From: Dehalococcoidia bacterium
GTDB lineage: Bacteria > Chloroflexota > Dehalococcoidia > Lucifugimonadales > HRBIN23
Direction: 5' to 3'
Length of the DNA stretch: 64,000 bases
NCBI GenBank assembly: GCA_046294495.1
Contig: JBKBKV010000003.1
Location: forward strand, 5,460-69,459
Part shown: positions 34,057 to 52,542 of the stretch, piece by piece
How positions within the stretch are numbered: position 1 is the first letter of the stretch
Layout of the letters: each line of letters opens with the position of its first letter
Position numbers and translations under genes: made by a program
Notes under the pieces: generated by a model
Seen by the model: only the letters and a program-made list of their open reading frames with translations
Database searches by the model: none
What the model was told of the DNA's origin: nothing

Positions 34057-36060
34057 TTAGGGACGCACCGTCTGGGGGAGTGGCCCCTCAAGTCCGTAGG
34101 CCATTGCAGGGGCAAAACGGCGCTGCGGCCATAGGGAGACCACCACTCCCAGCACCGCTAGAGGCCCCGCTAGGAACCACATCCACCACACCATAGGGTT
34201 CACCATAATGCGGAAGAGCACGCTCCCGTCGTCTTGGAACTCGCTGGCGATAATGTAGAGGTCTTCCCAGGGCGTGGAGCGTATTGCCGCCCGCGTCGCC
34301 GACACCGCCCCAATGGGCGAGTTGGGGAAAAAGGCGGTCCACGGCGTATACAGCCCCACAAACCTCCCGCCTCGGTAAACAGCAAGGGTAGCCAACTGCT
34401 CCTCCCTGTCCCCCCTCTCCTGGTGGCGTGTCGCCAGGAAGTGCAATGTCCACCCCTCCACCACCACCTCTTCCCTCGGCTTCAAAAGCACATCCCGCTG
34501 GACGCTGTAGAAGGTAGAAGCGGTAACTCCCAGCCCCAGCACCACGATGCCCAGGTGCACAAGGTAGCCACCATAGCGGGGGCGATTGCTCATAAGCAGG
34601 CGCAGGAAAGCGGCTAGCCACCCCTCCCCTTTGCGATGGCGCACCCAGGTGCCGTGCACCCACTCCTTCAGGATGGCCACCGCCACCATGCCCAAGATGG
34701 CGAAAGAGACCACCGCATAAGGCTTGCGCACACCCACGGCCAAAAGAAGCGCTGCCACACCCACAGCCGTGGCCCCCGGCACCAGCAGGGCTTCCTTGAG
34801 AGACGCCACGCTGGCACGGCGCCAGGGCAGAAGTGGCCCCAAAGCCATAAGGAAGAGCAGAGCCAGGAAAAGGGGACCATTGATACGGTTGTAGAAGGGT
34901 GCACGCACCGTAACAACCTCCCCAAAAAACAACTGGGAGAAGAGGGGGTAGATCTCCCCCCATAGGGTGGTGAAGGTGATGGCCAGCAACACAAGGTTGT
35001 TATACAGGAAGGCTGCCTCCCGCGACCAGGAGGACTCCAGGCCCCCTCCCACCTTCAGGGTGGGGGCACGCCAGAAAAGCAGGAGGGCTGCTCCCCCCAC
35101 TACCCCGGCCATAAAGGCCAGGAACACCCACCCCATGGTGGACTGGGCGAAGGAGTGCACCGACGGCACTGGCCCACCACGATTCATAAAAATGCCGAAA
35201 AGGGCCAGCCCCATGGCGATGATGAGCAGTGCGAAGTTCCATGTGCGGAAGAGACCCCGGCGCATCTCCACCATGGCCGAGTGGATGAAGGCAGTCATGG
35301 CAAACCAGGGCATAATGCCAGCGTTTTCTACCGGGTCCCACGCCCAGTAGCCCCCCCACCCCAGGATGGTATACGCCCACCACCCCCCAAACAGGTTGCC
35401 AAGGCTCAGCAGGAGCCACACCACCAGCCCCCAGGGACGCCCGGCGTCCAACCACGCCGACCCCTTCTGCCCCACCAGCAGTGCGCCCATAGCAAAGGCG
35501 AAGGGGACGCTCACCGACACCAGCCCGGTCATCATGGCCGGAGGGTGAAAGAACATCCCGTAGTGTATCAGCAGGGGGTTGATACCCCGCCCATCAGGGG
35601 GGGTAAAGGGGAGGCGGGCAAAGGGGTTGGCCAGAACCAGATTTACTGCTAGGAGGAACACCACAAACAAGCCGAGAATGCCCGCCGTGTAAGGAAGGAA
35701 AGACACTGTGCGTTGGGGAGCAAAGCGCACCGCTAGCACCGTCAGTAAAGCCATTACAAAGGCGAGGAAGAGCATGGACCCCTGGTTGCCTGCGTAGAAA
35801 GCCACCCAGGTCAGGTACCAGTCTAGGGCACGGTTGCTGTTTTCAAAGACATACCGCACCGAAAAGTCCCGCCCCAGGAACGCCCCAATAAGCCCAGCGA
35901 TAGACACCCCCAGAAGTATGGGCAGGAGATAAAAGGCCCTGCGAGCGCTCTCCACCAGCAGGGGATTACGCCTCCACGCCCCCAGGAAGGAGCCTGCCGC
36001 CCCATAGCAAGCCAGGGCCAGTGCCAGGACCATGCTGATAAGGCCGATGTCAGCTGCCAT
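34057..36060 (-). CDS. ccmF: Cytochrome c-type biogenesis protein CcmF (heme lyase component)
   Basis: 667 aa, polytopic. WWD heme-handling motif LGWGGYWAWDPVENAGIMPW. Confidence 0.9.
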   Translation of the reverse strand: MAADIGLISMVLALALACYGAAGSFLGAWRRNPLLVESARRAFYLLPILLGVSIAGLIGAFLGRDFSVRYVFENSNRALDWYLTWVAFYAGNQGSMLFLAFVMALLTVLAVRFAPQRTVSFLPYTAGILGLFVVFLLAVNLVLANPFARLPFTPPDGRGINPLLIHYGMFFHPPAMMTGLVSVSVPFAFAMGALLVGQKGSAWLDAGRPWGLVVWLLLSLGNLFGGWWAYTILGWGGYWAWDPVENAGIMPWFAMTAFIHSAMVEMRRGLFRTWNFALLIIAMGLALFGIFMNRGGPVPSVHSFAQSTMGWVFLAFMAGVVGGAALLLFWRAPTLKVGGGLESSWSREAAFLYNNLVLLAITFTTLWGEIYPLFSQLFFGEVVTVRAPFYNRINGPLFLALLFLMALGPLLPWRRASVASLKEALLVPGATAVGVAALLLAVGVRKPYAVVSFAILGMVAVAILKEWVHGTWVRHRKGEGWLAAFLRLLMSNRPRYGGYLVHLGIVVLGLGVTASTFYSVQRDVLLKPREEVVVEGWTLHFLATRHQERGDREEQLATLAVYRGGRFVGLYTPWTAFFPNSPIGAVSATRAAIRSTPWEDLYIIASEFQDDGSVLFRIMVNPMVWWMWFLAGPLAVLGVVVSLWPQRRFAPAMAYGLEGPLPQTVRP

Positions 36061-36583
36061 TTAGTTCCCCCTGGTCCTTTTGGGAGGGTGATGCACGGCG
36101 CCGGGCCATCCGCTCCTGGAAAGCCCTGTCCACCTCCTCTAGATAAGGCACTAGCGCATCCTGTGGGACTTGAGGGGGCGAGCCAGCCTGGAGTGTGGTG
36201 GCGCCCCGTGTGGCATACCAGAGGAGGAAGACGGCCACTAACACCCCTACCGGGGGCAAGAGCCAGGCGAGCCAGTGCCCCCCGCGTGCCGGTGGTGCTG
36301 CCAGCACCCCAGGGCCAAACCGCTCCACAAAGAACTGGAGGATCTCCTGCTCCTTTTTCCCCTGTGCCAGCATCTCCCGCACCACCTCCCGCATCTCCTT
36401 GGCCTGGGTAGCGCGGGACTGGTCAATGGTCTCGCCAGGGCAAACAGGGCAAATGAGTTTTCGGTCAATAGCCTGGGCTTGCATTTCTAGGCTGGCTGGT
36501 GTGGGGCGACAACCCCACACCCCCAGGGCCAGCAGGCCCAGCAAGATGGCAAATCTCACCAGGATGGAATACCCCCTCTTCAC
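36050..36583 (-). CDS. ccmH: Cytochrome c-type biogenesis protein CcmH
   Basis: 177 aa. Signal/anchor sequence, CXXC motif LICPVCPGETIDQS, and a later TM helix. Overlaps ccmF by 11 nt. Confidence 0.85.
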   Translation of the reverse strand: MKRGYSILVRFAILLGLLALGVWGCRPTPASLEMQAQAIDRKLICPVCPGETIDQSRATQAKEMREVVREMLAQGKKEQEILQFFVERFGPGVLAAPPARGGHWLAWLLPPVGVLVAVFLLWYATRGATTLQAGSPPQVPQDALVPYLEEVDRAFQERMARRRASPSQKDQGELNGS

Positions 36584-36630
36584 TACACCCCCCTACCTTC
36601 ACAGGTTATCACATCACGGGGGTGCTCTCC

Positions 36631-36659
36631 TTGTTTTTGTGAAAAATTTCCCCTAATAT
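36631..36659 (+). promoter_or_regulatory. Candidate promoter for the MMPL gene (TTGTTT N17 TAATAT)
   Basis: An AT-rich island in a GC-rich background. TTGTTT at 36631-36636 and TAATAT at 36654-36659, 28 nt before the ATG. Confidence 0.4.
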
Positions 36660-36687
36660 TCTACGCTAGAGCCGGCAGTGGGTATCG

Positions 36688-38892
36688 ATGCTTTATCGCT
36701 GGGGCCTCCTCGTTGTCCGCTGGCGATGGCCTGTCCTGACCATCTGGATAGCCCTTTTCTTGCTGGGCTTACCCTTTGCCCCAAGGGTGTCTGGGTTGCT
36801 GAAGAGCGGCTTCGGGAGGGCCGATGTGGAGTCCGAGCGTGCCCTGAATCTGCTAAAGGAACGCTTCGGCTTCGCTGAGGCATCCATCACCTTCGTGTTC
36901 CAACACCCCACACTCCGCGCTACCGACCCTGCTTTCATTGCCCTGGAGGAGCAAGCCCTCTCTCCATTGCGCAACGCCCCGGGGGTGCAGCGCATCGTTA
37001 CCCATTATACCAGCGCTAATCCCCGTATGGTCTCCTCCAACGGGCACACCGCCTATGCCCTGGTGCTCCTGAAAGGGAGCATTGACGAGGCCATGGACGC
37101 CTACCGTGACCTGCGCCCGCTGGTGCAAGCGCCGCAGGAGATGCGTATCTGGGCTACCGGAGGCATTCCCATCTTCGCAGACCTGAACCAGGCAGCGGAG
37201 CGGGACCTGCGCAGGGCCGAAGTGGTTACCCTGCCGGTGGTGCTCGTAGCCCTGGTCTTCGTGTTCGGAGGGCTGGTGGCGGCTGCTCTTCCTCTCCTTA
37301 TCGGTGCCACCAGTGTTGCCATTACCCTTGCCCTTATCGCCCTGCTAGCGCGCACCGTGGATATGTCCATTTTTGTAGGGAACATTGTAACGGTGCTGGG
37401 CTTAGGCGTGGCTGTGGACTACGCCCTGCTGGTGGTGAGCCGTTTCCGTGAGGAGGTAAACCTCCGCCCTAAAGAGGAGGCCATTGCCATCACCGTGGAC
37501 CGGGCGGGGCGGGCCTTGCTCTTTTCGGGTTTCACCACCGTGGTGGGGCTGTCGGGGCTTTTGCTTTTCCCTTATATGATGCTCCGCTCCCTGGGAGTAG
37601 GGGGAATGCTGGTGGTGGGCATTAGCATGGCGGCGGCACTAACGGCTCTGCCGGCGTTGCTAGCCACTGTGGGCAAGGGGGTCAATGCCATCCCCGTTCT
37701 CCCCTTGCGAGAGGTGCAAGAGAGGTGGTGGCACCGCCTGGCTCTGGCTATTATGGGCCGTCCCTTCGTGGTGATAGCCGCTGTGGGGGCGTTTCTGATT
37801 GTGCTTGGGCTTCCCTTTCTGCGGGTGCGCATAGGGGCGCCGTGGGCGTCCATCCTCCCCCAGGGGGCAGAGGCCCGCCAGGGGTGGGAGGTGCTGGCGA
37901 AGGAGTTTGGGGAGGGGGAGTTGGCCCCCATTGCCGTGGTCATCCAAGACCCCCAGGGGGTGTTGCGTCCACAGGCGGTGGAGCGCCTTTACGACTTCGC
38001 CCATGTCCTGGCGCAGGACAGCCGCGTGGAGCGGGTGGAGAGCATCGTTACCCTTGACCCCCGCCTCACCCGGGAGCAGTATGCCCTTCTATACGCTAAC
38101 CCTCAGGCCATCCCTTCCCCTGAAGTGCGCGCTGCCCTTGAGAGTATGGTCCGCCCCGACACCACCTACCTCAGGGTAGTCAGCAAATACCCGCCACTGT
38201 CCGACGAGACGAAGGCCCTTGTGCAGCGCATCCGCCGGGAGGGGCCGGCCTATGGGCTACAGGTTTCAGTAACGGGGGCCACCGCAGACATTATGGACGC
38301 TGTTGACCTGATGTATGGAAAGTTTGTGTGGGTAGTGGCGTATGTGGCTGGAGCCATATACCTGTGCCTGCTTCTTTTGTTCCGCTCCCTGGTGCTCCCA
38401 TTGAAGGCGGTTGTTATTAACACCTTGAGTATCCTGGCCAGTTATGGGGCACTGGTGTTTATCTTCCAGGAGGGGCACTTCAGCAGTATCCTGGGCTTCC
38501 AGGCCGAGGGGTATACCGAGTCCACTATCCCTATACTCCTTTTCTGCATCCTTTATGGTCTGAGCATGGATTATGAGGTGTTTCTGCTGGCGCGAGTCAA
38601 GGAGATATACGACGAAACGGGGGACAACACCCACAGCGTGGCGCTGGGCCTAGAGAAGACGGGACGCATCGTTACCAGCGCCGCCCTCATCCTCTTCCTG
38701 GTGAACATCTCCTTTGTAATAGGGGATGTGGTGCTCGTCAAAGCCCTGGGGGTGGGGATAGCCCTGGCTGTGCTCCTGGATGCCACGGTGGTGCGGGCGC
38801 TGTTGGTGCCAGCCACCATGCGGGTGCTGGGAGAGTGGAACTGGTGGGCGCCTATGTGGATGGGGGGAAAACGCCAAGGGGGCACCGTATAG
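36688..38892 (+). CDS. MMPL/RND-superfamily membrane transporter
   Basis: 734 aa. Two 6-TM bundles, each preceded by a large extracytoplasmic loop. Contains GVAVDYALLVVSRFREE and GLSMDYEVFLLARVKE, typical MMPL motifs. Confidence 0.9.
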   Translation: MLYRWGLLVVRWRWPVLTIWIALFLLGLPFAPRVSGLLKSGFGRADVESERALNLLKERFGFAEASITFVFQHPTLRATDPAFIALEEQALSPLRNAPGVQRIVTHYTSANPRMVSSNGHTAYALVLLKGSIDEAMDAYRDLRPLVQAPQEMRIWATGGIPIFADLNQAAERDLRRAEVVTLPVVLVALVFVFGGLVAAALPLLIGATSVAITLALIALLARTVDMSIFVGNIVTVLGLGVAVDYALLVVSRFREEVNLRPKEEAIAITVDRAGRALLFSGFTTVVGLSGLLLFPYMMLRSLGVGGMLVVGISMAAALTALPALLATVGKGVNAIPVLPLREVQERWWHRLALAIMGRPFVVIAAVGAFLIVLGLPFLRVRIGAPWASILPQGAEARQGWEVLAKEFGEGELAPIAVVIQDPQGVLRPQAVERLYDFAHVLAQDSRVERVESIVTLDPRLTREQYALLYANPQAIPSPEVRAALESMVRPDTTYLRVVSKYPPLSDETKALVQRIRREGPAYGLQVSVTGATADIMDAVDLMYGKFVWVVAYVAGAIYLCLLLLFRSLVLPLKAVVINTLSILASYGALVFIFQEGHFSSILGFQAEGYTESTIPILLFCILYGLSMDYEVFLLARVKEIYDETGDNTHSVALGLEKTGRIVTSAALILFLVNISFVIGDVVLVKALGVGIALAVLLDATVVRALLVPATMRVLGEWNWWAPMWMGGKRQGGTV

Positions 38893-42826: not shown

Positions 42827-44557
42827 TTACGGGCGCTGGATACGCACATCCAGCACGGCCGCCTGTCCCCTCTCTACTGCCGATAGGCCCCGCTCCAGGG
42901 CTGGGCGCACCTGCTGGGGGTCTTCCACCCGCTCCCCATACGCCCCGCACGCCTGTGCCACCAGGGCATACTCCGGAGAGGGCGATAGGTCGGTGCCTAG
43001 CCACTGCCCCAGGCGCTGGGCGTAACTCTGGGGATAGGCCTCCCGCCAGGAGCGCTTGGTGGCGTGGTGCATCTGGTTGTTGAAGATGACAGTTAGGAAG
43101 GGTGCACGATAGGCCGTGGCCGTCCACAGGGCCGAGGTAGGGCACCCGAACAGGAAAGAGCCGTCCCCCACCAGGGCCACCACCCGCCGCTGCGGGGAGG
43201 CGAGTTTCGCCCCGATGGCCGCCCCCAATGCCCACCCCAGGCTGGAGCCCCCGCTGGTAAACACGGTGCCAGGCTGTGTGCGCATAACCCCCTGCGCCAC
43301 ATACCCCGCATTGGTAACCGTTTCGTCCAGCAACAGGTCCTCTGGAGAGAGCACCTGGTCAATACAGGAGACCAGCCACTCAGGGGCGATGGGGTAGGTG
43401 GTGGACAGGCGTTGGGCGATGCGGCGCGTCTCCTGGCGCTTCTGGAGATGGGCCTCACCCAGGGAGTGCAGGCGCTCCTGGGCACGCTGGCGTTGGGAAG
43501 GGGTAAGGGAGGCGTCCACCGCTTCAACCAGCGCCGGCAGGGCCTTGGCCGAGTCGGCGTGGATACGCAGATGGGCAGGGAAGGTGAAGAGGGGGATGGT
43601 GGACTTCATGGGGTCAATGTCTATCCAGATGACGGTGGCATCGGGGCGGGGCTTCGCCTGGGAAGGGATGTAGGGGACCTCCTCGTCCACGATTAGGACG
43701 ACATCGGCCTCCCGCAGGTATGGTCCGGGGAGGGTGCCGGCCCAAAGGGGGTGGTTGGTGGGGAAGTTCATACGGCAGGACGAGGCGACCACCGGCGCAC
43801 CAAGGCGCTCTGCCAGGGCCACCAGGGGCGCCACCGCCCCAGGGTTGCGCCCCGCTCGTCCCACGATGAGGAGAGGGCGTTCCGCCTTGGCCAGGGCCTG
43901 GGCTGCCTGTGCCAGAGCCGTAGGGTCGGCCTGGGGGGTAACGGGGGTGGAGAGTTCCTGGGGATAAGGGATGGGCACCCCCTCTACCTCCTCCATAAGC
44001 ACCTCGCGCGGGAGTGTGAGGTAAACAGGCCCTGGTGGCTCCGCAGCAGCCAGGGCGAAAGCCCGATTCACCACATGGTGGATGCTCTCATTGCGACGCA
44101 GTTCGTAGTCCCACTTCACGAAGCCCCGCACGCTCATCCCCTGGTCTATCTGCTCCTGAATCCAGTGGATCCAGATGTTGCGGCTCCCGGGCAGTTCACC
44201 TTCTAGGGTTAGTGGGGCGCGCCCTGCACACAATACGATGCCTGCCTTGCCTCTCTGGGCGTTGTGCAGAGCACCCCCCACCTGCAGGGTGCCAATGTCT
44301 ACATGCACCAGCACCACCTGGGGGCGCCCACTGACCATAAAGTGGCCGTGGGCAGCGGACATAGCCACCCCCTCGTGGGGGCAGACCACCACCTCCGGCG
44401 TCTTCCGCCCTTCTACCCGCAAGCGGGCGATAGCCTCCTGAACGGGGAAGGTGTCGGTGCCAGAGTTCAGGAAGATGTAGTCTACCCCGTTGGCGTTGAG
44501 GAGTTCCACAAAGGCTTCAGCACCCGTGCGCACGGGAGCCACTATCCTCTGCGCCAT
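42827..44557 (-). CDS. Thiamine diphosphate-dependent enzyme, acetolactate synthase/benzoylformate decarboxylase-like
   Basis: 576 aa. ThDP-binding motif LVGDGSFLF...VIFNNQ and the three-domain length. Only 30 nt downstream of the vWA gene, with its own AAGGAGG. Confidence 0.85.
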   Translation of the reverse strand: MAQRIVAPVRTGAEAFVELLNANGVDYIFLNSGTDTFPVQEAIARLRVEGRKTPEVVVCPHEGVAMSAAHGHFMVSGRPQVVLVHVDIGTLQVGGALHNAQRGKAGIVLCAGRAPLTLEGELPGSRNIWIHWIQEQIDQGMSVRGFVKWDYELRRNESIHHVVNRAFALAAAEPPGPVYLTLPREVLMEEVEGVPIPYPQELSTPVTPQADPTALAQAAQALAKAERPLLIVGRAGRNPGAVAPLVALAERLGAPVVASSCRMNFPTNHPLWAGTLPGPYLREADVVLIVDEEVPYIPSQAKPRPDATVIWIDIDPMKSTIPLFTFPAHLRIHADSAKALPALVEAVDASLTPSQRQRAQERLHSLGEAHLQKRQETRRIAQRLSTTYPIAPEWLVSCIDQVLSPEDLLLDETVTNAGYVAQGVMRTQPGTVFTSGGSSLGWALGAAIGAKLASPQRRVVALVGDGSFLFGCPTSALWTATAYRAPFLTVIFNNQMHHATKRSWREAYPQSYAQRLGQWLGTDLSPSPEYALVAQACGAYGERVEDPQQVRPALERGLSAVERGQAAVLDVRIQRP

Positions 44558-44587: not shown

Positions 44588-46621
44588 TTACGCCAGCAGA
44601 CGGCGACGGCCGGTGAGGTAGTCCACCAGCATATACTGGCCCAGGCGCTCCGGGCTGGTGTAGAACACCCGCCCCCGGTTGATGCGGGTCATCTGGTCTA
44701 CGAAGTCCATTAGATAAGAGTTACGGTCCAGCATAAAGGTATTGATGATGATGCCCTTACTGGTGCACCGCTTCACCTCCTTCAGGGTCGCGCGGATAGT
44801 GTGCGGGCTAGGTGGATACTGGAGGAACAACTGCCCCCCCTCCAGGTGGGCAGTTGGCTCCCCGTCGGAAATCATCAGGATCTGGCGGGTTCCGTTGCAT
44901 CGGGCTAGCAGTTTCTGGGCGAGCATCAGCCCGTGCTGGATGTTGGTGTAGGGGTCAAACTCGTCCCAAGTCAGATAGGGAAGCTTCTCGGGCTTTATTT
45001 CCCGTGCATAAGTAGAAAACCCTACGATGTGGAGGCGGTCCCTAGGGAACTGGGTGCGAATGAGGTTGTCCAGCGCCATGGCCACCTTCTTGGCCGCTAG
45101 GAAGTTGCCCCGCATAGCCATAGAGAGGGAGAGGTCTATCATCAGCACCGTGCTGGACTGAACGAACTGCTCCATCTGGTAGACCTCAAAGTCCTGTAGG
45201 CGCACCCGTATAGGGGTATGGGGGCCTTCTCGGAAAAGGGCGTTGAAGAGGGTGCGTTGCAGGTCGGGGTCAAAGGGGTCGCCGAACTCCCAGGCCTTGT
45301 TTTCGTAGGTGCGCTCGCCTGGCCCGAAGCGCCATCGGGAGATGTGCTGCCCGCTGCGGTCGCGCCGAATGTAGGTAAAGATCTCATACAGGGCCTTCTG
45401 CCCTAGCTTGCGCACCCCCTTGGGGGTTAGTTCCAGGCGGCCACCAACCCTCCGTATGTAGCCGGCCTGTTCCAGCACATCGGCCAGGCGCTGCAAGTAG
45501 GCTGCCTCCTGTGCAGTTTCTGGGCCTAGCACCTGCTCCATAAGGGCCATGTCCAGGCCCCCGGGTGTGGCCCCCTGCTGGAAGCGGCGCAGTTGGCGCT
45601 CTAACTCGTCCATCTGCTGGAGGCGCTCCATCACATCCAGGGCTTGGGGCAGGTCCAGGGGCTCCTGCCCTTGAAAGGGGTATTCCCGGCGCAGAGGGCC
45701 CATGGGGAAGAGGTCTTCAAGGTTGAAGGCCATGCGGGCCAGTTCCTGAACTAACTCCTGGTCCTGTAGGGCCTGCTCCAGCACCTGCTCCAACTGGCGA
45801 CGCTGTTCTGGGGAGAGGCTCTGCAACAGGGACTGCAGGTTGGCCGCCTGGCGCTGGAGGTGCTCCACCAGTTCCTCCAGGGTAGTAGGGGGCTGGCGGC
45901 CGAAGAGGTGGTTCCATTGCTCCAGGAACTGCTGGAAGTTGGGCTGTCCCCCCCGACGGCGCTCTTCCAGGAGGCGGTTCAGGTCCTTAAGAAACTCCTT
46001 GAGGCGCTGGATGTCCTGTGGGCCTAGCCTTTGCAGACCCTCCAGCAGGTCTTGGAAGGTGCGCTGTAACACCTGTTGTTGCAGGGATTGGAGCAAGCGG
46101 TCAAAGCGCTCTTTGGCCTCCGGGCTGGTGAACTCGTAGTCTTTCAGGCGCTGGATAGCCGAGGCCGGCTCTGGGGGAAGGGTGTCAAGGAACCGGTGGG
46201 CCTGCTCCAGGGAGCGCTGGAGGCGGCGCAGGAGGTCCGCCTCCAGGCCCCCGCCCTTTCCCTCCTGCTGAATGCGTTGCAGTTTCTCCGCCATCTCCTG
46301 GCTTCGGCGGGCCAGGGCCTCCCGCTCCAGGCGCAGGATATCTTCCAGTTCCTTCTGGATATTCCCTAGCACCGAAGAGAGGTTGTATCGGTCCAGCACC
46401 TCCTGCCGACGCTGGCGCAGGCGCTGGAGGAGTTCCTGAACGCCAGGGAGGCGCTGGCCGTAGCGCCCCCGCAGGCCACGCTGTAAAAGGGAACGGAGGG
46501 CGGTGCCCACATCCCCCTGCCCCATGAGGCTTTCGGAGAGTTGCTCCATAACATCATCCTCGTGGAGCGGAAACTCGGCCTGGGTGCCGTCCCAGCGGGA
46601 ATACCTGTAGAAAAGCATCAT
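44588..46621 (-). CDS. vWA-domain protein with long helical Q/L/E/R-rich N-terminal region
   Basis: 677 aa. N-terminus MMLFYRYSRWDGTQ. About 450 aa are coiled-coil-like. The C-terminal vWA domain has an intact MIDAS start (VLMIDLSLSM) and ...ILMISDGEPT. Confidence 0.85.
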   Translation of the reverse strand: MMLFYRYSRWDGTQAEFPLHEDDVMEQLSESLMGQGDVGTALRSLLQRGLRGRYGQRLPGVQELLQRLRQRRQEVLDRYNLSSVLGNIQKELEDILRLEREALARRSQEMAEKLQRIQQEGKGGGLEADLLRRLQRSLEQAHRFLDTLPPEPASAIQRLKDYEFTSPEAKERFDRLLQSLQQQVLQRTFQDLLEGLQRLGPQDIQRLKEFLKDLNRLLEERRRGGQPNFQQFLEQWNHLFGRQPPTTLEELVEHLQRQAANLQSLLQSLSPEQRRQLEQVLEQALQDQELVQELARMAFNLEDLFPMGPLRREYPFQGQEPLDLPQALDVMERLQQMDELERQLRRFQQGATPGGLDMALMEQVLGPETAQEAAYLQRLADVLEQAGYIRRVGGRLELTPKGVRKLGQKALYEIFTYIRRDRSGQHISRWRFGPGERTYENKAWEFGDPFDPDLQRTLFNALFREGPHTPIRVRLQDFEVYQMEQFVQSSTVLMIDLSLSMAMRGNFLAAKKVAMALDNLIRTQFPRDRLHIVGFSTYAREIKPEKLPYLTWDEFDPYTNIQHGLMLAQKLLARCNGTRQILMISDGEPTAHLEGGQLFLQYPPSPHTIRATLKEVKRCTSKGIIINTFMLDRNSYLMDFVDQMTRINRGRVFYTSPERLGQYMLVDYLTGRRRLLA

Positions 46622-46624
46622 ACA

Positions 46625-47830
46625 CTACCCCTTATGGCCTCTGCCCATCGCATACGCCGGGGATGAGGGCGCCTCCTCCATACCCAGTTCCCGGCGCATA
46701 ATCCCACAATACTTTGGCTCAATATCCACCAGGATGAAGCGCCTCCCCAGCCTCTGGCAAGCCTTCCCTACCGTGCCAACACCGGCGAAAGGGTCGAGCA
46801 CCACATCCCCAATGAAGGAATAATAGCGCACCAGTCGCTCCACCACCTGCAGGGGGAAAACAGCCGGATGCTCCGGGTGGTGCGCAGGGCGAGCATACCA
46901 CACATTGGTTACCTCATACCCGTCGTCAATACGCGACGCCTCTACCGCCTCTCTATCGGGATGGCTACGGATGTTCCAGTCAATAAGCCTCTGGGTGTGT
47001 TTGCGGTAGACAAGGAAGTATTCGGTAACGGGAACGGGTTTGTATTGCAGGGGATGGCGGTCCGCGGCGAAACGCCTGCCCCGTCCAGTGTTCCACCCAG
47101 CCCCTTCGGGCTTCACCCAGATGATGTCGTCCAGGAAGTCAAAGCCCAGCCGCTCCAGGATGGCGTTGATATGGAAAGGCACCGGGATGCGCTGGCTAGG
47201 GTGCTTACGGGTAGGGCGGCGCACCAGCACCGGGGAGGCGTTCACGATGAGGAAGCGCCCCTCTGCCAGCACCCGATGGCACTCTCGGAAGACTGCCTCC
47301 AGCGTCTCCAGATAATGCTGGTAGGTGGCGAACTCCCCGTATTGTGGCTTGGCGTTGTAGTAAGGGGGGGAAGTCAGCACTAAATGCACATACCCCTCTG
47401 GAAAGGCCCGCAGCACCTGGCGCGCATCGCCACAGATAACCTGGCTGGGGAGGGGGTCAATGACAAGGGGGCGCTCGGTTGGGGGGGCTGTGGGAAGGGG
47501 ATGGGCCTTGGCATATCCCAGGCGAGCCAGGATGATACCTGGCGGAGTAGCCTGCACTACCTCTCCATTGGCGCACCCCACCATCACCTCCCCCACCACC
47601 ACGCCCCCATCTGGGGCCATTAGGGACACCCTCCACGCTCCGTAGCGGTCGTCCACCTCTGGCAGGCCCGGGGCTAGGGCGGCTTGGGGTGGGAGGTTCT
47701 GTGCCACCCACTGGAGCACCCGCTCCCGCGCCTGCTGGGCTGTGGCCACTTGCCCCAAGCGGGCGGCAAGGCGGTTCACCCTTTTCCCACGCCGTGGGAA
47801 AACAGACACAACCATGCCCACCTCTTCCAC
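46625..47830 (-). CDS. Beta-class DNA methyltransferase (N4-cytosine or N6-adenine) with uncharacterised ~130-aa N-terminal extension
   Basis: Motif IV LVLTSPPYYN precedes motif I VLDPFAGVGTVGKA, which is the beta-class order. The start is GTG 47830, or more likely ATG 47815, which follows GAAGAGGTGG. The stop lies 3 nt before the vWA start. Confidence 0.9.
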   Translation of the reverse strand: MEEVGMVVSVFPRRGKRVNRLAARLGQVATAQQARERVLQWVAQNLPPQAALAPGLPEVDDRYGAWRVSLMAPDGGVVVGEVMVGCANGEVVQATPPGIILARLGYAKAHPLPTAPPTERPLVIDPLPSQVICGDARQVLRAFPEGYVHLVLTSPPYYNAKPQYGEFATYQHYLETLEAVFRECHRVLAEGRFLIVNASPVLVRRPTRKHPSQRIPVPFHINAILERLGFDFLDDIIWVKPEGAGWNTGRGRRFAADRHPLQYKPVPVTEYFLVYRKHTQRLIDWNIRSHPDREAVEASRIDDGYEVTNVWYARPAHHPEHPAVFPLQVVERLVRYYSFIGDVVLDPFAGVGTVGKACQRLGRRFILVDIEPKYCGIMRRELGMEEAPSSPAYAMGRGHKG

Positions 47831-47843
47831 CCGCAGCCGGGGG

Positions 47844-49247
47844 TTATCCCTTGTAGCGGAAGCGCCCTTCTACCCGGTCACGATTGAGGCGTCGGTTGAG
47901 GTGCAGGCTCTCCAGCACGAACTCCACCACTGAAGCGAAGAGAGCCTCGTTTTCCTGCACTTGGAACTTGCGCAGGGCTGGCTCAAAGCCCTCTATCCCC
48001 CTCAGTTTCTCCACATACACGAAGGAGGGGATGGCGGTGCCAGTCTCCACAACCAGGCCCTCCTCAAACTTCTGCACCAGGGGGTCGAACTCCCGCACAT
48101 TGAAGGTGCGGTTGAAGGTGTTCAGGACGGCCTTCTTCAGCAGTTCCTCAATGATGCGCCCCTCTCGCCCTTCTTCCACCGTCTCTAGTTCCAGTTTGCC
48201 AGCAGTAGAGGCGAAGATGAAGGGGAGGTCGCTTATGCGGGGCACCGCTACCCCTTCGTTGTAGCGAATGGCACGGCGCAGGGCGGCTGCCAGAAGGGTC
48301 TCGTAGTTGGATATAGTTACCCGCACCGACACCCCAGAGCGCTGGTTGATATCTGGGCTTCGCCTGGCCAGTGTGGTAAACTCGGCGACTATCTCCTTCA
48401 TAAATCCGGGCACTTGCACCCTATCGTCCATATCGGGGAAGTGCACCCGCTCCTGCTCCACGATGGCCAGTTCGTCCTCCAGGGTGCGAGGATAGTGGGT
48501 GCGGATTTGGGCGCCATAGCGGTCTTTCAGAGGGGTAATAATGCGCCCACGGTTGGTATAGTCCTCCGGGTTGGCGCTTGCCACCACATACACATCCAGA
48601 GGCAGGCGAATCAGATACCCTCTAATCTGGATATCCCGCTCCTCCAGGAGGTTAAACAAGCCCACCTGGATCCGTTCAGGCAGGTCTGGCAGCTCGTTGA
48701 CGCAGAAGATGCCTCGGTTCACCCTGGGAATAAGACCGAAATGTATGGTCAGTTCGTCGGCCAGGTAACGCCCCTCGGCTACTTTGATGGGGTCTACCTC
48801 GCCGATGAGGTCGGCAATGGACACATCAGGGGTAGCCAGTTTCTCGGCGTAGCGGTGCTCCCGCGGGAGCCAGGAGATTTCTACCTGGTCGCCGTATTGG
48901 GCTACCCGGTCTCGGCACGCTTTGCAGATGGGCTTGTAGGGGTTATCGTTGATTTCGCACCCGGCGATAACGGGCACCTCCTCGTCCAGCAGATACACAA
49001 ACTGGCGGATGAGACGCGATTTAGCCTGCCCCCGCTCCCCCAGGAAAATGATGTCCTGCCCAGCAAGGATAGCGTTCTCTATCTGTGGGATAACGGTGTC
49101 CTCGTAGCCGATGATGCCGGGGAAGAGGCGTTCCCCCTTGCGTAGTTTCTCAATAAGGTTCTTGCGCAGTTCCTCTCGCACCGACAGCACCTGGTAACCG
49201 CTGTGGCGCAGTTCTCCGATGGTCTTGGGTCTCCCCCTATCGGCCAT
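47844..49247 (-). CDS. AAA+ ATPase of the ChlI/BchI-MoxR type with deviant Walker motifs
   Basis: 467 aa. Contains FLGERGQAKSRL (Walker A-like, with Ala in place of the last Gly), GIFCVNELPDL (Walker B-like, with Asn in place of Asp), and VVASANPEDY...GRIITPLKDR. An insert with CxxC (CKAC) is present. The stop lies 13 nt before the methyltransferase ORF. Confidence 0.85.
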   Translation of the reverse strand: MADRGRPKTIGELRHSGYQVLSVREELRKNLIEKLRKGERLFPGIIGYEDTVIPQIENAILAGQDIIFLGERGQAKSRLIRQFVYLLDEEVPVIAGCEINDNPYKPICKACRDRVAQYGDQVEISWLPREHRYAEKLATPDVSIADLIGEVDPIKVAEGRYLADELTIHFGLIPRVNRGIFCVNELPDLPERIQVGLFNLLEERDIQIRGYLIRLPLDVYVVASANPEDYTNRGRIITPLKDRYGAQIRTHYPRTLEDELAIVEQERVHFPDMDDRVQVPGFMKEIVAEFTTLARRSPDINQRSGVSVRVTISNYETLLAAALRRAIRYNEGVAVPRISDLPFIFASTAGKLELETVEEGREGRIIEELLKKAVLNTFNRTFNVREFDPLVQKFEEGLVVETGTAIPSFVYVEKLRGIEGFEPALRKFQVQENEALFASVVEFVLESLHLNRRLNRDRVEGRFRYKG

Positions 49248-49619: not shown

Positions 49620-49674
49620 TTGGCACCTACAACAGCGCAGTGCTATGCTGGAAGTGAACCCCCACCCAGGGGGG
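49620..49674 (+). promoter_or_regulatory. Candidate csoR-copA promoter (TTGGCA N18 TATGCT) with a GC-rich pseudo-palindrome (CCCCC ACCCA GGGGGG) as possible CsoR operator
   Basis: TTGGCA at 49620-49625, TATGCT at 49644-49649, and the C5-N5-G6 inverted repeat at 49659-49674, 15 nt before the csoR ATG. Known CsoR operators are C-tract/G-tract inverted repeats. Confidence 0.4.
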
Positions 49675-49688
49675 AGGGGAGGGTTAGC

Positions 49689-49958
49689 ATGCTGGCCGAA
49701 GTGCGGGAGGATGTGCTCAAACGCCTTGCATCTGTGCAGGGGCACCTGGAGGGTGTGCGACGGATGGTGGAGCAGGACGCTTACTGCGTGGATGTCCTGA
49801 AGCAACTGTTCGCCGTCCAGCGGGCGCTGGACAAGATTGAACAGGCCATCCTGGACGGCCACCTGAAGACCTGCGTGGTGGAGGGCATCCGGGGCGAACG
49901 CACCCAGCAGGTGCTGAAGGAACTGTCGGAAATCTACGCACTGGCTAACCGCTCATAG
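49689..49958 (+). CDS. csoR: CsoR/RcnR-family metal-sensing repressor
   Basis: Track ORF 49620.. trimmed to ATG 49689 (89 aa). Contains RLASVQGHLEGVRRMVEQDAYCVDVLKQLFAVQRALD, with the C-H-C ligand pattern of copper-sensing CsoR. Confidence 0.85.
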   Translation: MLAEVREDVLKRLASVQGHLEGVRRMVEQDAYCVDVLKQLFAVQRALDKIEQAILDGHLKTCVVEGIRGERTQQVLKELSEIYALANRS

Positions 49959-49968
49959 GAGGAAAGGG

Positions 49969-52542
49969 ATGGATCCTTCCCACAAGAAGGCCACTCTGCC
50001 TATCCAGGGGATGACCTGCGCATCCTGCGTGGCCCATGTTAGCGCAGCCCTCCAAAGGGTCCCCGGTGTGGCAAAGGTAAGCGTGAACCTGGCCACCAAC
50101 CGCGCTTACCTGGAATACGACCCCAACCTGGCCACCGTCAAGGCGATGAAGAAGGCTGTGGACGAGATTGGCTACACCGTTGTGCTGGAGCAGGCCAAGT
50201 TCCAAGTTACTGGTATGATGGGCTCCCACTGGGAGGAAGTTATCAGCAAGGCCTTGGGGGAACTGCCAGGGGTTTACCGCGTGGTGGCCAACGCATCTGC
50301 AGAAAGCGTGCGGGTAGAGTTTGCCCCAGACATCACCAGCAAGGCTGAAATACGGAGGACGATAGAGGGGCTGGGCTACAGCGTTACAGAGAAAGTGGAG
50401 GGCGCCGAGGCTGCCGATCGGGAGCGAGAGGCCCGCCAGAAGGAGATACGCCGCCAGGGGCTGAACCTCCTGGTAACCACCCCTCTGGCCCTGGCGGTTA
50501 TGCTGGGCACCTTCCAGCCCTACTGGGGCCTCTCCCGCGTTGTCCCGGATCTCCTGCACAACAAGGTCGTCCTTTTCCTCCTTACCACACCCCTGATTAT
50601 CGGCCCTGGGCGGCAGTTCTTCGTCAACTCCTTCAACGGTCTGCGCAGGGGCCTCACCGATATGAACCTTTTATACGCCACGGGCATTGGAGCAGCCTAT
50701 CTTATCGCCGTTATCAACACCTTCTGGCCCAACGCCGGCTTTGGCGGACGCATGGCCACCTTCTACGAGGCGGCCGCCCTCCTGACCTGGTTCATACTCC
50801 TGGGGCGCTACCTGGAGGCCGTTACCCGCGGGCGCGCCTCCGAGGCCATCCGCCGACTTATGCGCTTCCAGCCACGGCGGGCGCGCCTGGTGCGCAATGG
50901 GGAAGAGGTGGAGGTGCCGGTGGAGGAGGTGGAGGTGGGCGACCTGCTGGTGGTGCGCCCAGGGGAGCAGGTGCCGGTGGACGGCATTGTGGTAGAGGGC
51001 TACTCCGCCGTGGACCAGTCCATAATCACCGGGGAGAGCATCCCCGTGGAGAAGAAGGCCGGGGACGAAGTTATTGGCGGGACGCTGAACAGGACAGGCT
51101 CCTTTACCTTTCGCGCCACCCGAGTGGGGCGAGAGACGGCCCTGGCCCAGATCATCAAACTGGTAGAGGAGGCCCAGACCTCCAAGGCCCCCATTCAGAG
51201 GCTGGCAGACACGGTGGCCGGGCACTTCATCTTCTGGGTGCATGTGCTGGCCCTGGCTACATTCCTCTTCTGGTATTTCGTTGGGTATGACCTCTGGTTC
51301 AGCCCTAACACCCGCCTTATGCTGACCCCATACACGCTGGCCGGGGCCAGCGCTGTGGGGTTCGCTGTGCTCATCTCCATTGCTGTGCTGGTTATCTCCT
51401 GCCCATGCGCTGTGGGCCTGGCCACTCCGGCGGCCATAATGGCCGGGACGGGCAAGGGGGCCGAGCACGGCATCCTCTTCAAGGGCGCCGACGCTGTGGA
51501 GGCCGCCACTAAGGTGCAGGTTATGGTCTTTGACAAGACGGGCACCCTAACCAGGGGGCAGCCAGAAGTAACCGATGTGGTGGCCAACGGGCTGGTGGAA
51601 AGCGAGGTCCTGCGCCTGGCCGCCGTGGCCGAGGTGCGCTCGGAACATCCCCTGGGGGAGGCCATTGTTCGCGCGGCCCGCCAACGGGGCCTGGCCGTCC
51701 CCGATCCCGATGCCTTTGAAGCCATCCCGGGCCGAGGCGTGGAGGCGCTCAGCAACGGCCACAGGGTGCTCCTGGGCAACCGCCGACTTATGGCAGAGCG
51801 GAGCATCCCTCTGGACAGCCTGGCCTATACCGCCGAGCGGCTAGAGCAGGACGGCAAGACGGCCATGTTTGTGGTGGTGGACGGGCACCCGGCTGGGGTC
51901 ATCGCCGTGGCCGACACCCTGCGGGAGACTACCCCCCTGGCAGTGAAAGAGCTTCAGCGCATGGGCATCCGCGTGGCCATGCTCACGGGAGACAACCGCC
52001 GCACCGCAGAGGCCATCGCTCGGCAGTTGGGGATGGACCGGGTGCTGGCCGAAGTGCTCCCCGGCGACAAGGCCCAGGAGATAAAGCGTCTACAGGAGGA
52101 GGGTTACCGGGTGGCTATGGTGGGCGATGGCATCAACGACGCCCCCGCCCTGGCCCAGGCGGATGTGGGCATCGCCATGGGGGCCGGCACAGATGTGGCC
52201 AAGGAGACCGGCCACATCATCCTGGTAAAAGACGACCTTCTGGATGCGGTGGCAGCGTTGCAGGTGGCCAGGGCCACCATGCGCCTGGTCAAGCAGAACC
52301 TGCTGTGGGCCTTCGGCTACAACACCGCTGCCATACCCCTGGCCTTTGGAATCCTCTACCCCTTTGTCCACCAGATGGTCAGCCCAGAACTGGCGGCTTT
52401 CCTCATGGCCATCAGTTCCCTCTCGGTAACCCTGAACACCCAGCGCATGCGGGCCTTTGTGCCGGGTATCCGTCGTCGCTACAAGGGCCTGCCCACCCCT
52501 GTGCCCCGGGAGGCCCCAGCCCCCGTTGCAACAGGGAGGTGA
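49969..52542 (+). CDS. copA: Copper-translocating P1B-type ATPase
   Basis: 857 aa. N-terminal HMA domain GMTCASCVAHV. A second HMA-like repeat has lost the cysteines (TGMMGSHW). Also CPC motif SCPCAVGLATP, DKTGTLT, and GDGINDAPAL. Confidence 0.95.
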   Translation: MDPSHKKATLPIQGMTCASCVAHVSAALQRVPGVAKVSVNLATNRAYLEYDPNLATVKAMKKAVDEIGYTVVLEQAKFQVTGMMGSHWEEVISKALGELPGVYRVVANASAESVRVEFAPDITSKAEIRRTIEGLGYSVTEKVEGAEAADREREARQKEIRRQGLNLLVTTPLALAVMLGTFQPYWGLSRVVPDLLHNKVVLFLLTTPLIIGPGRQFFVNSFNGLRRGLTDMNLLYATGIGAAYLIAVINTFWPNAGFGGRMATFYEAAALLTWFILLGRYLEAVTRGRASEAIRRLMRFQPRRARLVRNGEEVEVPVEEVEVGDLLVVRPGEQVPVDGIVVEGYSAVDQSIITGESIPVEKKAGDEVIGGTLNRTGSFTFRATRVGRETALAQIIKLVEEAQTSKAPIQRLADTVAGHFIFWVHVLALATFLFWYFVGYDLWFSPNTRLMLTPYTLAGASAVGFAVLISIAVLVISCPCAVGLATPAAIMAGTGKGAEHGILFKGADAVEAATKVQVMVFDKTGTLTRGQPEVTDVVANGLVESEVLRLAAVAEVRSEHPLGEAIVRAARQRGLAVPDPDAFEAIPGRGVEALSNGHRVLLGNRRLMAERSIPLDSLAYTAERLEQDGKTAMFVVVDGHPAGVIAVADTLRETTPLAVKELQRMGIRVAMLTGDNRRTAEAIARQLGMDRVLAEVLPGDKAQEIKRLQEEGYRVAMVGDGINDAPALAQADVGIAMGAGTDVAKETGHIILVKDDLLDAVAALQVARATMRLVKQNLLWAFGYNTAAIPLAFGILYPFVHQMVSPELAAFLMAISSLSVTLNTQRMRAFVPGIRRRYKGLPTPVPREAPAPVATGR

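Follow-up and report, generated by a model that had tools for sequence, protein, structure and literature searches.

Gene layout of the locus

In the window, by which we mean the whole stretch of 64,000 nucleotides that was analysed, the genes for an AAA+ ATPase, a DNA methyltransferase and a vWA protein follow one another in the same orientation on the minus strand. All three open reading frames were found at the coordinates, and with the motifs and spacers, that an earlier note on this DNA had read from its letters. The features of the locus are:

42827..44557, minus strand: ThDP-dependent enzyme, PRK08327 type (NCBIfam NF006203, 5.9e-200)
44588..46621, minus strand: vWA protein, Rv0959-type, second partner of a conserved pair (677 aa ORF; VWA_2, 1.8e-07)
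46625..46633, minus strand: right copy of a 9-nt direct repeat, AAGGGGTAG, covering the final two amino-acid codons and stop codon of the methyltransferase ORF
46625..47815, minus strand: solitary beta-class DNA methyltransferase of the M.CfrBI family (396 aa; N6_N4_Mtase, 2.3e-45)
47844..47852, minus strand: left copy of this repeat, AAGGGATAA, covering the final two amino-acid codons and stop codon of the AAA+ gene
47844..49247, minus strand: ChlI/BchI-like AAA+ ATPase, first partner of an Rv0958/Rv0959-type pair (467 aa ORF; AAA_5, 2e-07)

The stop codon of the AAA+ gene is separated by 13 nt from the GTG of the longest methyltransferase ORF (46625-47830 on the minus strand, GTG start at 47830, 401 aa), that of the methyltransferase by 3 nt from the vWA ATG, and that of the vWA gene by 30 nt from the ATG of the ThDP gene, which is preceded by AAGGAGG. 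The longest ORF and its 13-nt spacer, as given in the earlier note, are a correct reading of the sequence, but the ATG at 47815 is the likelier start. It is preceded by GAGGTG, and close homologues begin at the matching position (P0121 opens with MVASVFPRRGKRVNRL); the true methyltransferase likely has 396 aa and a spacer of 28 nt. The Shine-Dalgarno sequence of the vWA gene does lie within the end of the methyltransferase gene, as had been proposed, with AAGGGG sitting in the right repeat copy (46625..46633).

We infer that the three genes are co-transcribed; a promoter and terminator scan of 42.5-49.8 kb returned counts not above those of shuffled sequence. The ThDP gene, which had been suggested to share the transcript, does not hold its place in the unit, its adjacency not being conserved among the closest relatives: it adjoins the vWA gene in the window and in L090/L091 only, lies 3.3 kb off in bacterium HR23 and is missing from the L001/L002 locus. 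The nearest neighbours of the three genes are an ABC peptide transporter, this ThDP enzyme, a CsoR-like repressor and a copper ATPase. Farther off, an AT-skew anomaly at 34-38 kb corresponds to CcmF and MMPL, large membrane-protein genes on opposite strands.

The AAA+/vWA pair

The AAA+ protein carries both the Walker A motif GERGQAKS and the Walker B motif CVNELPD. The earlier note had singled these out as deviant, and they are indeed present, but they are not peculiar to the locus, GERGQAK and NELPD being invariant in 52 distinct family members and 22 database homologues. Homologues number at least 8000 and go by 'magnesium chelatase' or 'sigma 54-interacting' in their sources; the family is widely spread in single, housekeeping-like contexts, with an identity of 68-75% across Chloroflexota and a dN/dS of 0.03-0.09 between the window protein and its relatives. 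Its best solved relatives are ChlI/BchI and RavA (ChlI first, 1.3e-09). Foldseek, run with an AlphaFold model whose conserved core (residues 134-250) has a pLDDT below 50, gave weak matches to ChlI, RavA and MCM (best E 5e-3), and none of the PADLOC defence models matched the protein. Identification as BchI was rejected on an NCBIfam score of 35.1 bits for TIGR02030 (equivalog cut-off 467), and a BchD reading on 26.6 bits for TIGR02031 (equivalog cut-off 500).

The vWA protein contains MMLFYRYSRWDG and the MIDAS motif DLSLS, in which D496, S498 and S500 are invariant in 22 homologues. Its description as a long helical region followed by a C-terminal vWA domain with an intact MIDAS is upheld by Pfam, the AlphaFold model and Foldseek alike. 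A 100% identical database entry (P0001) bears PF27532 (Mb0984_helical), PF27098 (Rv0959_3rd) and PF13519, the first two assignments coming from the precomputed Pfam table for P0001 and VWA_2 from a local scan; the model shows helices from residue ~21 to 420 and then a C-terminal vWA fold, which Foldseek matched to solved vWA domains. NCBIfam gave no match. PADLOC returned LeoB (1.9e-05) and JetA (0.0036) only; both weak matches fall in the Q/L/E/R-rich helices and probably reflect composition. A vWA-family profile searched against PDB sequences matched only designed helical bundles, again a compositional effect.

Together, the two proteins are a widespread pair of the Rv0958/Rv0959 type, from a very large family. 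In M. tuberculosis the namesakes are a 'possible magnesium chelatase' and a conserved hypothetical vWA protein, which appear in the literature as screen entries only, no functional study having been found. The window vWA protein bears the Pfam domains named after Rv0959 and Mb0984 (PF27098, PF27532), and a ChlI-like AAA+ of ~465 aa lies upstream, an arrangement shared with many loci in Chloroflexota and Actinomycetota; the likeness to Rv0958 is one of type, size and position. Unlike Rv0958/Rv0959, the partners in the window are split by the methyltransferase gene. With BchI/BchD, RavA/ViaA, CbbQ/CbbO and NorQ/NorD the pair shares an AAA+ of the ChlI/MoxR clade and a partner with a C-terminal MIDAS-vWA domain, and presumably it acts as a MoxR/chelatase-like remodelling motor with a MIDAS adaptor. 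It differs from these chelatase and MoxR pairs in a Walker A with AKS, a Walker B with NE in place of DE, and a vWA protein whose ~420-aa helical region is unique and which lacks an AAA-like N-domain; from BchI/BchD it is further set apart by scores far under the family cut-offs.

The methyltransferase and its usual nuclease

In the methyltransferase, TSPPY (153-157) precedes DPFAGVGT (346-353), and this motif order, with a PF01555 match of 2.3e-45, confirms the earlier assignment to the beta-class SPPY enzymes. PADLOC matched it to MTase_II models only (1.4e-106). All 94 family-invariant positions are kept, and dN/dS is ~0.15 at a dS of 0.5-1.1. These sequence comparisons indicate that the gene is under purifying selection, is not junk in three of four lineages, and has some selected role.

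The closest known systems are those of CfrBI/StyI type, whose methylases are from 48% (plasmid) to 57-63% (Chloroflexota) identical to the window enzyme and share with it the SPPY motif typical of N4-cytosine enzymes, the beta-class motif order and the conserved N-terminal GLPEVDDRY domain. In the Chloroflexota methylases P0125 (63% identical) and P0140 (57%), a PF09516 RE_CfrBI gene follows directly downstream, and on enterobacterial 5.7-kb plasmids the 48% identical methylase stands beside a 'CfrBI family restriction endonuclease'. Metagenome loci of the methyltransferase family gave the same picture: an R.CfrBI homologue was found at 64 of the 68 evaluable loci, at 63 of them immediately downstream, leaving 4 of 68 loci that had none. 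Neither AAA+ nor vWA genes occurred beside the methyltransferase-family gene at any of 80 metagenome loci. M.CfrBI is an N4-cytosine enzyme for CCWWGG (PMC6556831), and the window enzyme is likewise predicted to form m4C, probably in CCWWGG, a specificity extrapolated from relatives of 48-63% identity that are partnered by a CfrBI-family nuclease. The window has 92 such sites where 86-119 are expected; there is no marked depletion, and the count speaks neither for nor against a cognate nuclease.

The complete CfrBI-type restriction-modification (R-M) layout is not present here, the gene after the methyltransferase being that of the vWA protein. A tblastn search of the 64-kb window with two R.CfrBI homologues returned nothing better than E = 1.6, so the observation that no nuclease gene lies nearby holds for CfrBI-type homologues across the window, the span for which the enzyme's 'orphan' status is established. 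The window enzyme is unlike CfrBI/StyI-type systems in having no nuclease in the window, in lying inside an unrelated operon, and in an end copied from the host junction. Retention in the window without a cognate nuclease, under purifying selection, is a trait of solitary R-M-derived methyltransferases; unlike Dam and CcrM, the enzyme occurs only in a very narrow clade, in one member of which it has already decayed. BREX and DISARM also combine a DNA methyltransferase with NTPase genes, but none of their signature proteins is present here, and the methyltransferase matches plain Type II M models only.

Origin of the three-gene arrangement

The earlier note had left two readings open: an NTPase-linked methylation or defence module, or a conserved housekeeping pair that an orphan methyltransferase had entered. 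Among 80 species-level loci of the vWA family (Chloroflexota, Actinomycetota, Rokubacteria and Dormibacterota), none had a methyltransferase homologue within 6 kb; this count, a test that the note itself had proposed, contradicts the former reading. An AAA+ gene lay within 6 kb of the vWA gene and on the same strand at 51 of the 80 loci, upstream in 49 cases and downstream in 2, and at 33 of the 80 it stood no more than 60 nt upstream. A divergent ATPase was considered for the 26 species that have no upstream AAA+ and was discarded, since the upstream genes there are unrelated (amidase, DUF2157, isochorismatase, DsbA, CO-dehydrogenase flavoprotein). Elsewhere the same AAA+/vWA junction is filled by other, unrelated genes: two retropepsin-like ORFs in L007, DUF5615 pairs in L023 and L072, a 341-aa ORF with no Pfam match in L026 and an acyltransferase gene in L030.

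The trio was found only in close relatives, with vWA proteins 86-89% identical (L001/L002, L090-L092 and L006). In the nearest relative outside this clade (L003; vWA 76%, AAA+ 88% identical), the AAA+ and vWA genes are 3 nt apart, and at this empty site the junction TACAAGGGGTAG-gct-ATG joins one directly to the other. Each of the four occupied loci (window, L001, L091, L006) has the 9-nt repeat on either side of the insert, and the empty site has it once; the syntenic methyltransferases are the only ones to end in ...KG before the stop. The methyltransferase and vWA genes show a 3-nt coupling because this repeat of the original junction flanks the insert. Co-translation, which had been called almost certain, is a reasonable inference, but the coupling is inherited, the vWA-side junction being the duplicated original AAA+/vWA junction. 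The divergence ranks of the three genes agree, L091 being nearer to the window than L001 for each, which fits a single ancestral insertion. GC3 is 0.72 in the methyltransferase versus 0.73-0.79 in its neighbours, and the absence of a foreign-composition signal in GC or GC3 fits an old insertion. In bacterium HR23, residues ~82-296 of the methyltransferase, SPPY included, are gone, as are 8 further residues and several invariant positions, and the neighbours of the gene are intact (AAA+ 93%, vWA 86-87% identical); to judge from these losses, the HR23 gene is an internally deleted relic.

Very probably, then, a solitary Type II methyltransferase of the M.CfrBI family was inserted into the 3-nt junction of an AAA+/vWA pair in the clade ancestor, the second of the two readings, which distribution, decay and family context support. 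The insertion would have occurred in the ancestor of a small hot-spring Dehalococcoidia clade, by a member of a family that normally supplies the modification half of CfrBI/StyI-type R-M systems. With it, a 9-nt target stretch where the AAA+ ORF ends, AAGGGGTAG, would have been doubled; the copy now supplies the '...KG-stop' of the methyltransferase ORF and leaves the vWA gene with its original ribosome-binding context and coupling. The methyltransferase is therefore most likely a passenger whose expression comes with that of the host operon, and its methylation of DNA (predicted m4C, probably in CCWWGG) most likely does not depend on the neighbouring genes. There is published precedent (PMC2853133) for R-M genes that inserted with duplication of the target; a repeat as short as 9 nt could also reflect microhomology-mediated recombination instead of a true target-site duplication. 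As to the order of events, M may have been inserted alone, or M and R may have been inserted and R then lost.

A dedicated system for NTPase-linked methylation or defence made up of the three genes, in which the methyltransferase marks self DNA and the AAA+/vWA proteins act as sensor or effector, is most improbable. Tight packing, probable co-translation and the purifying selection on a methyltransferase inside the operon would suit such a system, and AAA+/vWA modules occur in some conflict systems. The combination is, however, absent from all 80 loci of the AAA+/vWA family and all 80 of the methyltransferase family, the nearest relative has an empty site, and the methyltransferase family is, in the great majority of its loci, paired with a CfrBI-family nuclease. 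The AAA+ protein is extremely conserved, widespread in single housekeeping-like contexts and without a PADLOC match, no nuclease or other effector lies nearby, and HR23 has let the methyltransferase decay beside intact partners. As far as sequence comparison can tell, distribution largely refutes this reading.

Alternatively, the enzyme might be the M half of a working CfrBI-type R-M system, with the nuclease gene at another place in the genome, beyond the 64-kb window, which we regard as very unlikely. The gene is intact and under purifying selection, an adjacent R gene is also missing at the 4 exceptional family loci, and several short palindromes are strongly avoided in the window. Such avoidance points to heavy restriction pressure on the lineage in general. 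Against this reading, R follows M immediately at 63 of the 64 R-positive loci, the window holds no R.CfrBI homologue and shows no depletion of CCWWGG, and HR23 survives a loss that would be lethal were a cognate nuclease active. It is also highly unlikely that the trio is ancestral to the wider lineage and that in L003-type relatives the 9-nt repeats recombined and cleanly removed the methyltransferase, which would make the empty site secondary. Flanking direct repeats would permit precise excision, and HR23 shows that the loss is tolerated; yet the methyltransferase is missing from all 80 more distant loci, many with the same tight junction, which makes an insertion in one clade far more parsimonious. 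Under either order the methyltransferase is an accessory passenger.

Given permanent co-expression, the preferred reading, insertion of a solitary methyltransferase, would be compatible with a secondary functional link to the AAA+/vWA proteins that is particular to this lineage. A stronger form, in which the captured m4C methyltransferase was domesticated and, as a long-kept obligatory co-transcript of the pair, would provide an epigenetic or protective function, seems to us very unlikely; its expression would then be tied to that of the pair. The repeated arrival of selfish genes between the partners, among which we count the methylase, PIN-like toxin pairs and retropepsin-like genes, could, as a related and likewise very unlikely possibility, mean that the pair itself has a role in genetic conflict. 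With thousands of homologues, M. tuberculosis included, and high conservation, the function of the Rv0958/Rv0959-type pair is the more interesting question.

The locus also carries a caution, in that tight spacing and apparent translational coupling can be a legacy of the insertion site and are not in themselves evidence of a functional system. It offers a clean case, from nature, of an R-M-derived methyltransferase that entered an operon with a short target duplication, and the occupied locus can be compared with an empty site as well as with a decayed copy.

Gene layout and junctions in the window

The locus comprises three head-to-tail genes, here called the trio, followed by a gene for a ThDP enzyme:

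47844-49247, minus strand: AAA+ gene, ORF of 467 aa (Pfam AAA_5)
46625-47830 (longest ORF), minus strand: DNA methyltransferase (MTase) gene (Pfam N6_N4_Mtase, 2e-45)
44588-46621, minus strand: vWA gene, 677 aa (Pfam VWA_2)
42827-44557, minus strand: ThDP enzyme gene, 30 nt past the vWA gene

The positions of the three ORFs were exactly as stated in the earlier note, and the junction sequences confirmed both of its spacers, 3 nt from the MTase stop to the vWA ATG and 13 nt from the AAA+ stop to the first GTG of the MTase ORF. The ATG at 47815, with GAGGTG ahead of it, is a more plausible MTase start than this GTG since close homologues start there, in which case the AAA+/MTase spacer would be 28 nt. 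Every motif quoted in that note was found in the three proteins. The Walker A sequence (GERGQAKS) and that of Walker B (NELPD), which the note called deviant, are invariant features of the family. The residues of the MIDAS, the metal-binding motif of the vWA protein, are likewise invariant across its family. In NCBIfam the AAA+ protein was closest to BchI/ChlI, yet far under the family cut-offs. Over its length the window matches a contig from a Dehalococcoidia MAG at 100% identity.

The AAA+/vWA pair as a widespread family

More than 3000 database entries are homologous to the vWA protein; the one identical to it has Mb0984_helical and Rv0959_3rd among its Pfam domains, which places the protein in the Rv0959 family of Mycobacterium tuberculosis. 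The AAA+ protein, which is nearest to ChlI/BchI and RavA, has at least 8000 homologues; these are annotated "magnesium chelatase", as is Rv0958, the AAA+ partner of Rv0959. In the model of the vWA protein, a helical region of ~400 residues is followed by a canonical vWA fold. Taking chelatase and MoxR systems as a model, we infer that the pair likely acts as an ATP-driven hexamer with the MIDAS protein as adaptor to a client. In the literature found, Rv0958/Rv0959 are mentioned in screens only, and a PADLOC search gave no defence-system assignment for the pair.

The vWA family was surveyed with one genome per species, and the best 80 of 599 confirmed relatives, from Chloroflexota, Actinomycetota, Rokubacteria and Dormibacterota, were examined. 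The earlier note had proposed counting how often an MTase lies beside AAA+/vWA homologues; in none of these 80 loci was an MTase homologue found within 6 kb of the vWA gene. The AAA+ gene ended no more than 60 nt ahead of the vWA gene in 33/80 loci and 61-300 nt ahead in 4; other genes separated the two in 12, the AAA+ gene lay downstream in 2, and it was not within the locus in 29. About one third of the species examined carry an Rv0959-type vWA gene with no AAA+ gene within 6 kb (L015, L019, L028, L037, L046, L060 and ~20 more of the retrieved loci), so that the linkage is frequent and not obligatory; the neighbours of these vWA genes are assorted housekeeping genes. The pair is an old, widespread unit, normally without an MTase.

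Origin and family of the methyltransferase

Among the closest relatives, four MTase-bearing locus types were found: the window, L001/L002 (GCA_025060295.1), L090-L092 (three sequencing runs) and L006 (bacterium HR23), the vWA proteins of the last three being 86-89% identical to the window's. Only this narrow clade has the trio; in the next relative (L003-L005; vWA 76% and AAA+ 88% identical), the AAA+ and vWA genes are 3 nt apart. Bacterium HR23 retains a relic:

L006:3569-4204 (BEHZ01000015.1): MTase relic between intact AAA+ and vWA genes

An in-frame deletion of residues ~82-296 (~215 residues) has taken SPPY and the target-recognition region, a second deletion has removed 8 residues, and invariant positions are substituted, while the reading frame is still open over about 190-210 aa. 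With the MTase decayed and its partners intact, the pair evidently does not need the MTase. Outside HR23, an intact MTase persists under purifying selection (dN/dS ~0.15), more relaxed than either the AAA+ (0.03-0.04) or the vWA gene (~0.09-0.10). The divergence ranks of the lineages are concordant across the three genes, which is what one ancestral insertion would give. In L090 and L091, an MTase lineage of 84% identity, ~330 bp absent from the window lie between the AAA+ and MTase genes and contain a called ORF of 65-76 aa (L090:1357-1554; L091:1753-1983).

The empty site of the L003 type reads ...TAC AAG GGG TAG gct ATG..., and at each of the occupied loci AAGGG(G/A)TA(G/A) still closes the AAA+ gene, the same 9 nt recurring at the very end of the MTase ORF, 3-9 nt ahead of the vWA ATG. 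In the window the copies are:

47852-47844, minus strand: 9-nt repeat, end of the AAA+ gene
46633-46625, minus strand: 9-nt repeat, end of the MTase ORF

Only the syntenic MTases end in ...KG-stop, other family members having unrelated C-terminal tails; the insert is therefore bracketed by a short target duplication, through which the vWA gene has retained its original Shine-Dalgarno context (AAGGGG). Restriction-modification (R-M) genes are known to enter new sites with duplication of the target and without further genes of a mobile element (PMC2853133). The insertion may have brought the methyltransferase half (M) alone, or M together with the endonuclease half (R), which would have been lost later. 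In other lineages, unrelated genes sit between the two partners:

L007:5118-5978: two tandem retropepsin-like aspartyl protease ORFs
L023:916-1665 and L072:3130-3898: DUF5615 (PIN-like) gene preceded by a small partner, the two looking like a toxin-antitoxin pair
L026:4974-5999: 341-aa ORF with no Pfam match
L030: acyltransferase

Genes thus seem to have landed at this junction repeatedly and, judged by these occupants, it is not special to the MTase.

Outside the syntenic clade, MTase relatives are at most 63% identical and come from Chloroflexota, Planctomycetes and archaea. Downstream of each of the two nearest, a PF09516 RE_CfrBI endonuclease gene overlaps the MTase gene end. Of 80 metagenome loci retrieved via a family alignment, 68 extended far enough downstream for evaluation, and 64 of these carry an R.CfrBI homologue, directly downstream on the same strand in 63; no AAA+ or vWA homologue was found among the metagenome loci examined. 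On small mobilizable plasmids from E. coli, Salmonella and Klebsiella, a 48% identical methylase adjoins an annotated "CfrBI family restriction endonuclease". With its SPPY motif, the MTase of the window is consistent with an N4-cytosine enzyme of the beta class. The best solved relative is 2zie, a putative modification methylase from Thermus (2.6e-38). In CCWWGG, it is the outer C that M.CfrBI converts to N4-methylcytosine (PMC6556831). No R.CfrBI homologue was found within the 64-kb window.

The NTPase-linked methylation system that the earlier note had put forward is not supported. The distribution of the MTase, its decay in HR23, its family context and the junction anatomy together support the note's fallback, an orphan MTase inserted into a conserved pair. 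The locus is a solitary M.CfrBI-like methylase plus an Rv0958/Rv0959-type pair, both of kinds already known.

Flanking genes and base composition

Adjacency of the ThDP gene to the trio is limited to the window and L090/L091: in HR23 the gene lies 3.3 kb off, and the L001 locus lacks it. Comparison with L001, where CcmF-like and MMPL genes directly flank the trio, suggests that the transporter and ThDP block (39.1-44.6 kb) between vWA and MMPL/CcmF belongs to the window's lineage only. In a further Chloroflexota locus (L087:6001-10027), an M.CfrBI-like/R.CfrBI pair is directly followed by a ThDP enzyme only 30% identical to the window's, probably a coincidence.

The AAA+ gene has upstream of it, in divergent orientation, an ORF for a CsoR-like metal repressor and one for a copper-translocating P-type ATPase (49620-52542). 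The intergenic stretch of about 370-700 nt must hold the operon promoter; no convincing sigma-70-type site was found. A strong AT-skew swing at 34057-38892 (+0.31, then -0.15) is due to two large genes for membrane proteins, a CcmF-like one on the minus strand and MMPL on the plus strand. Several four-base palindromes are nearly missing from the 64 kb (GTAC 2, ACGT 2, TCGA 8 and AGCT 19, against ~100-217 expected), TTAA and GATC are depleted too, and GGGCCC occurs 11 times vs ~57 expected, which suggests that several restriction systems, of the 4-base-cutter and ApaI types, have exerted long-term pressure on this thermophilic lineage.
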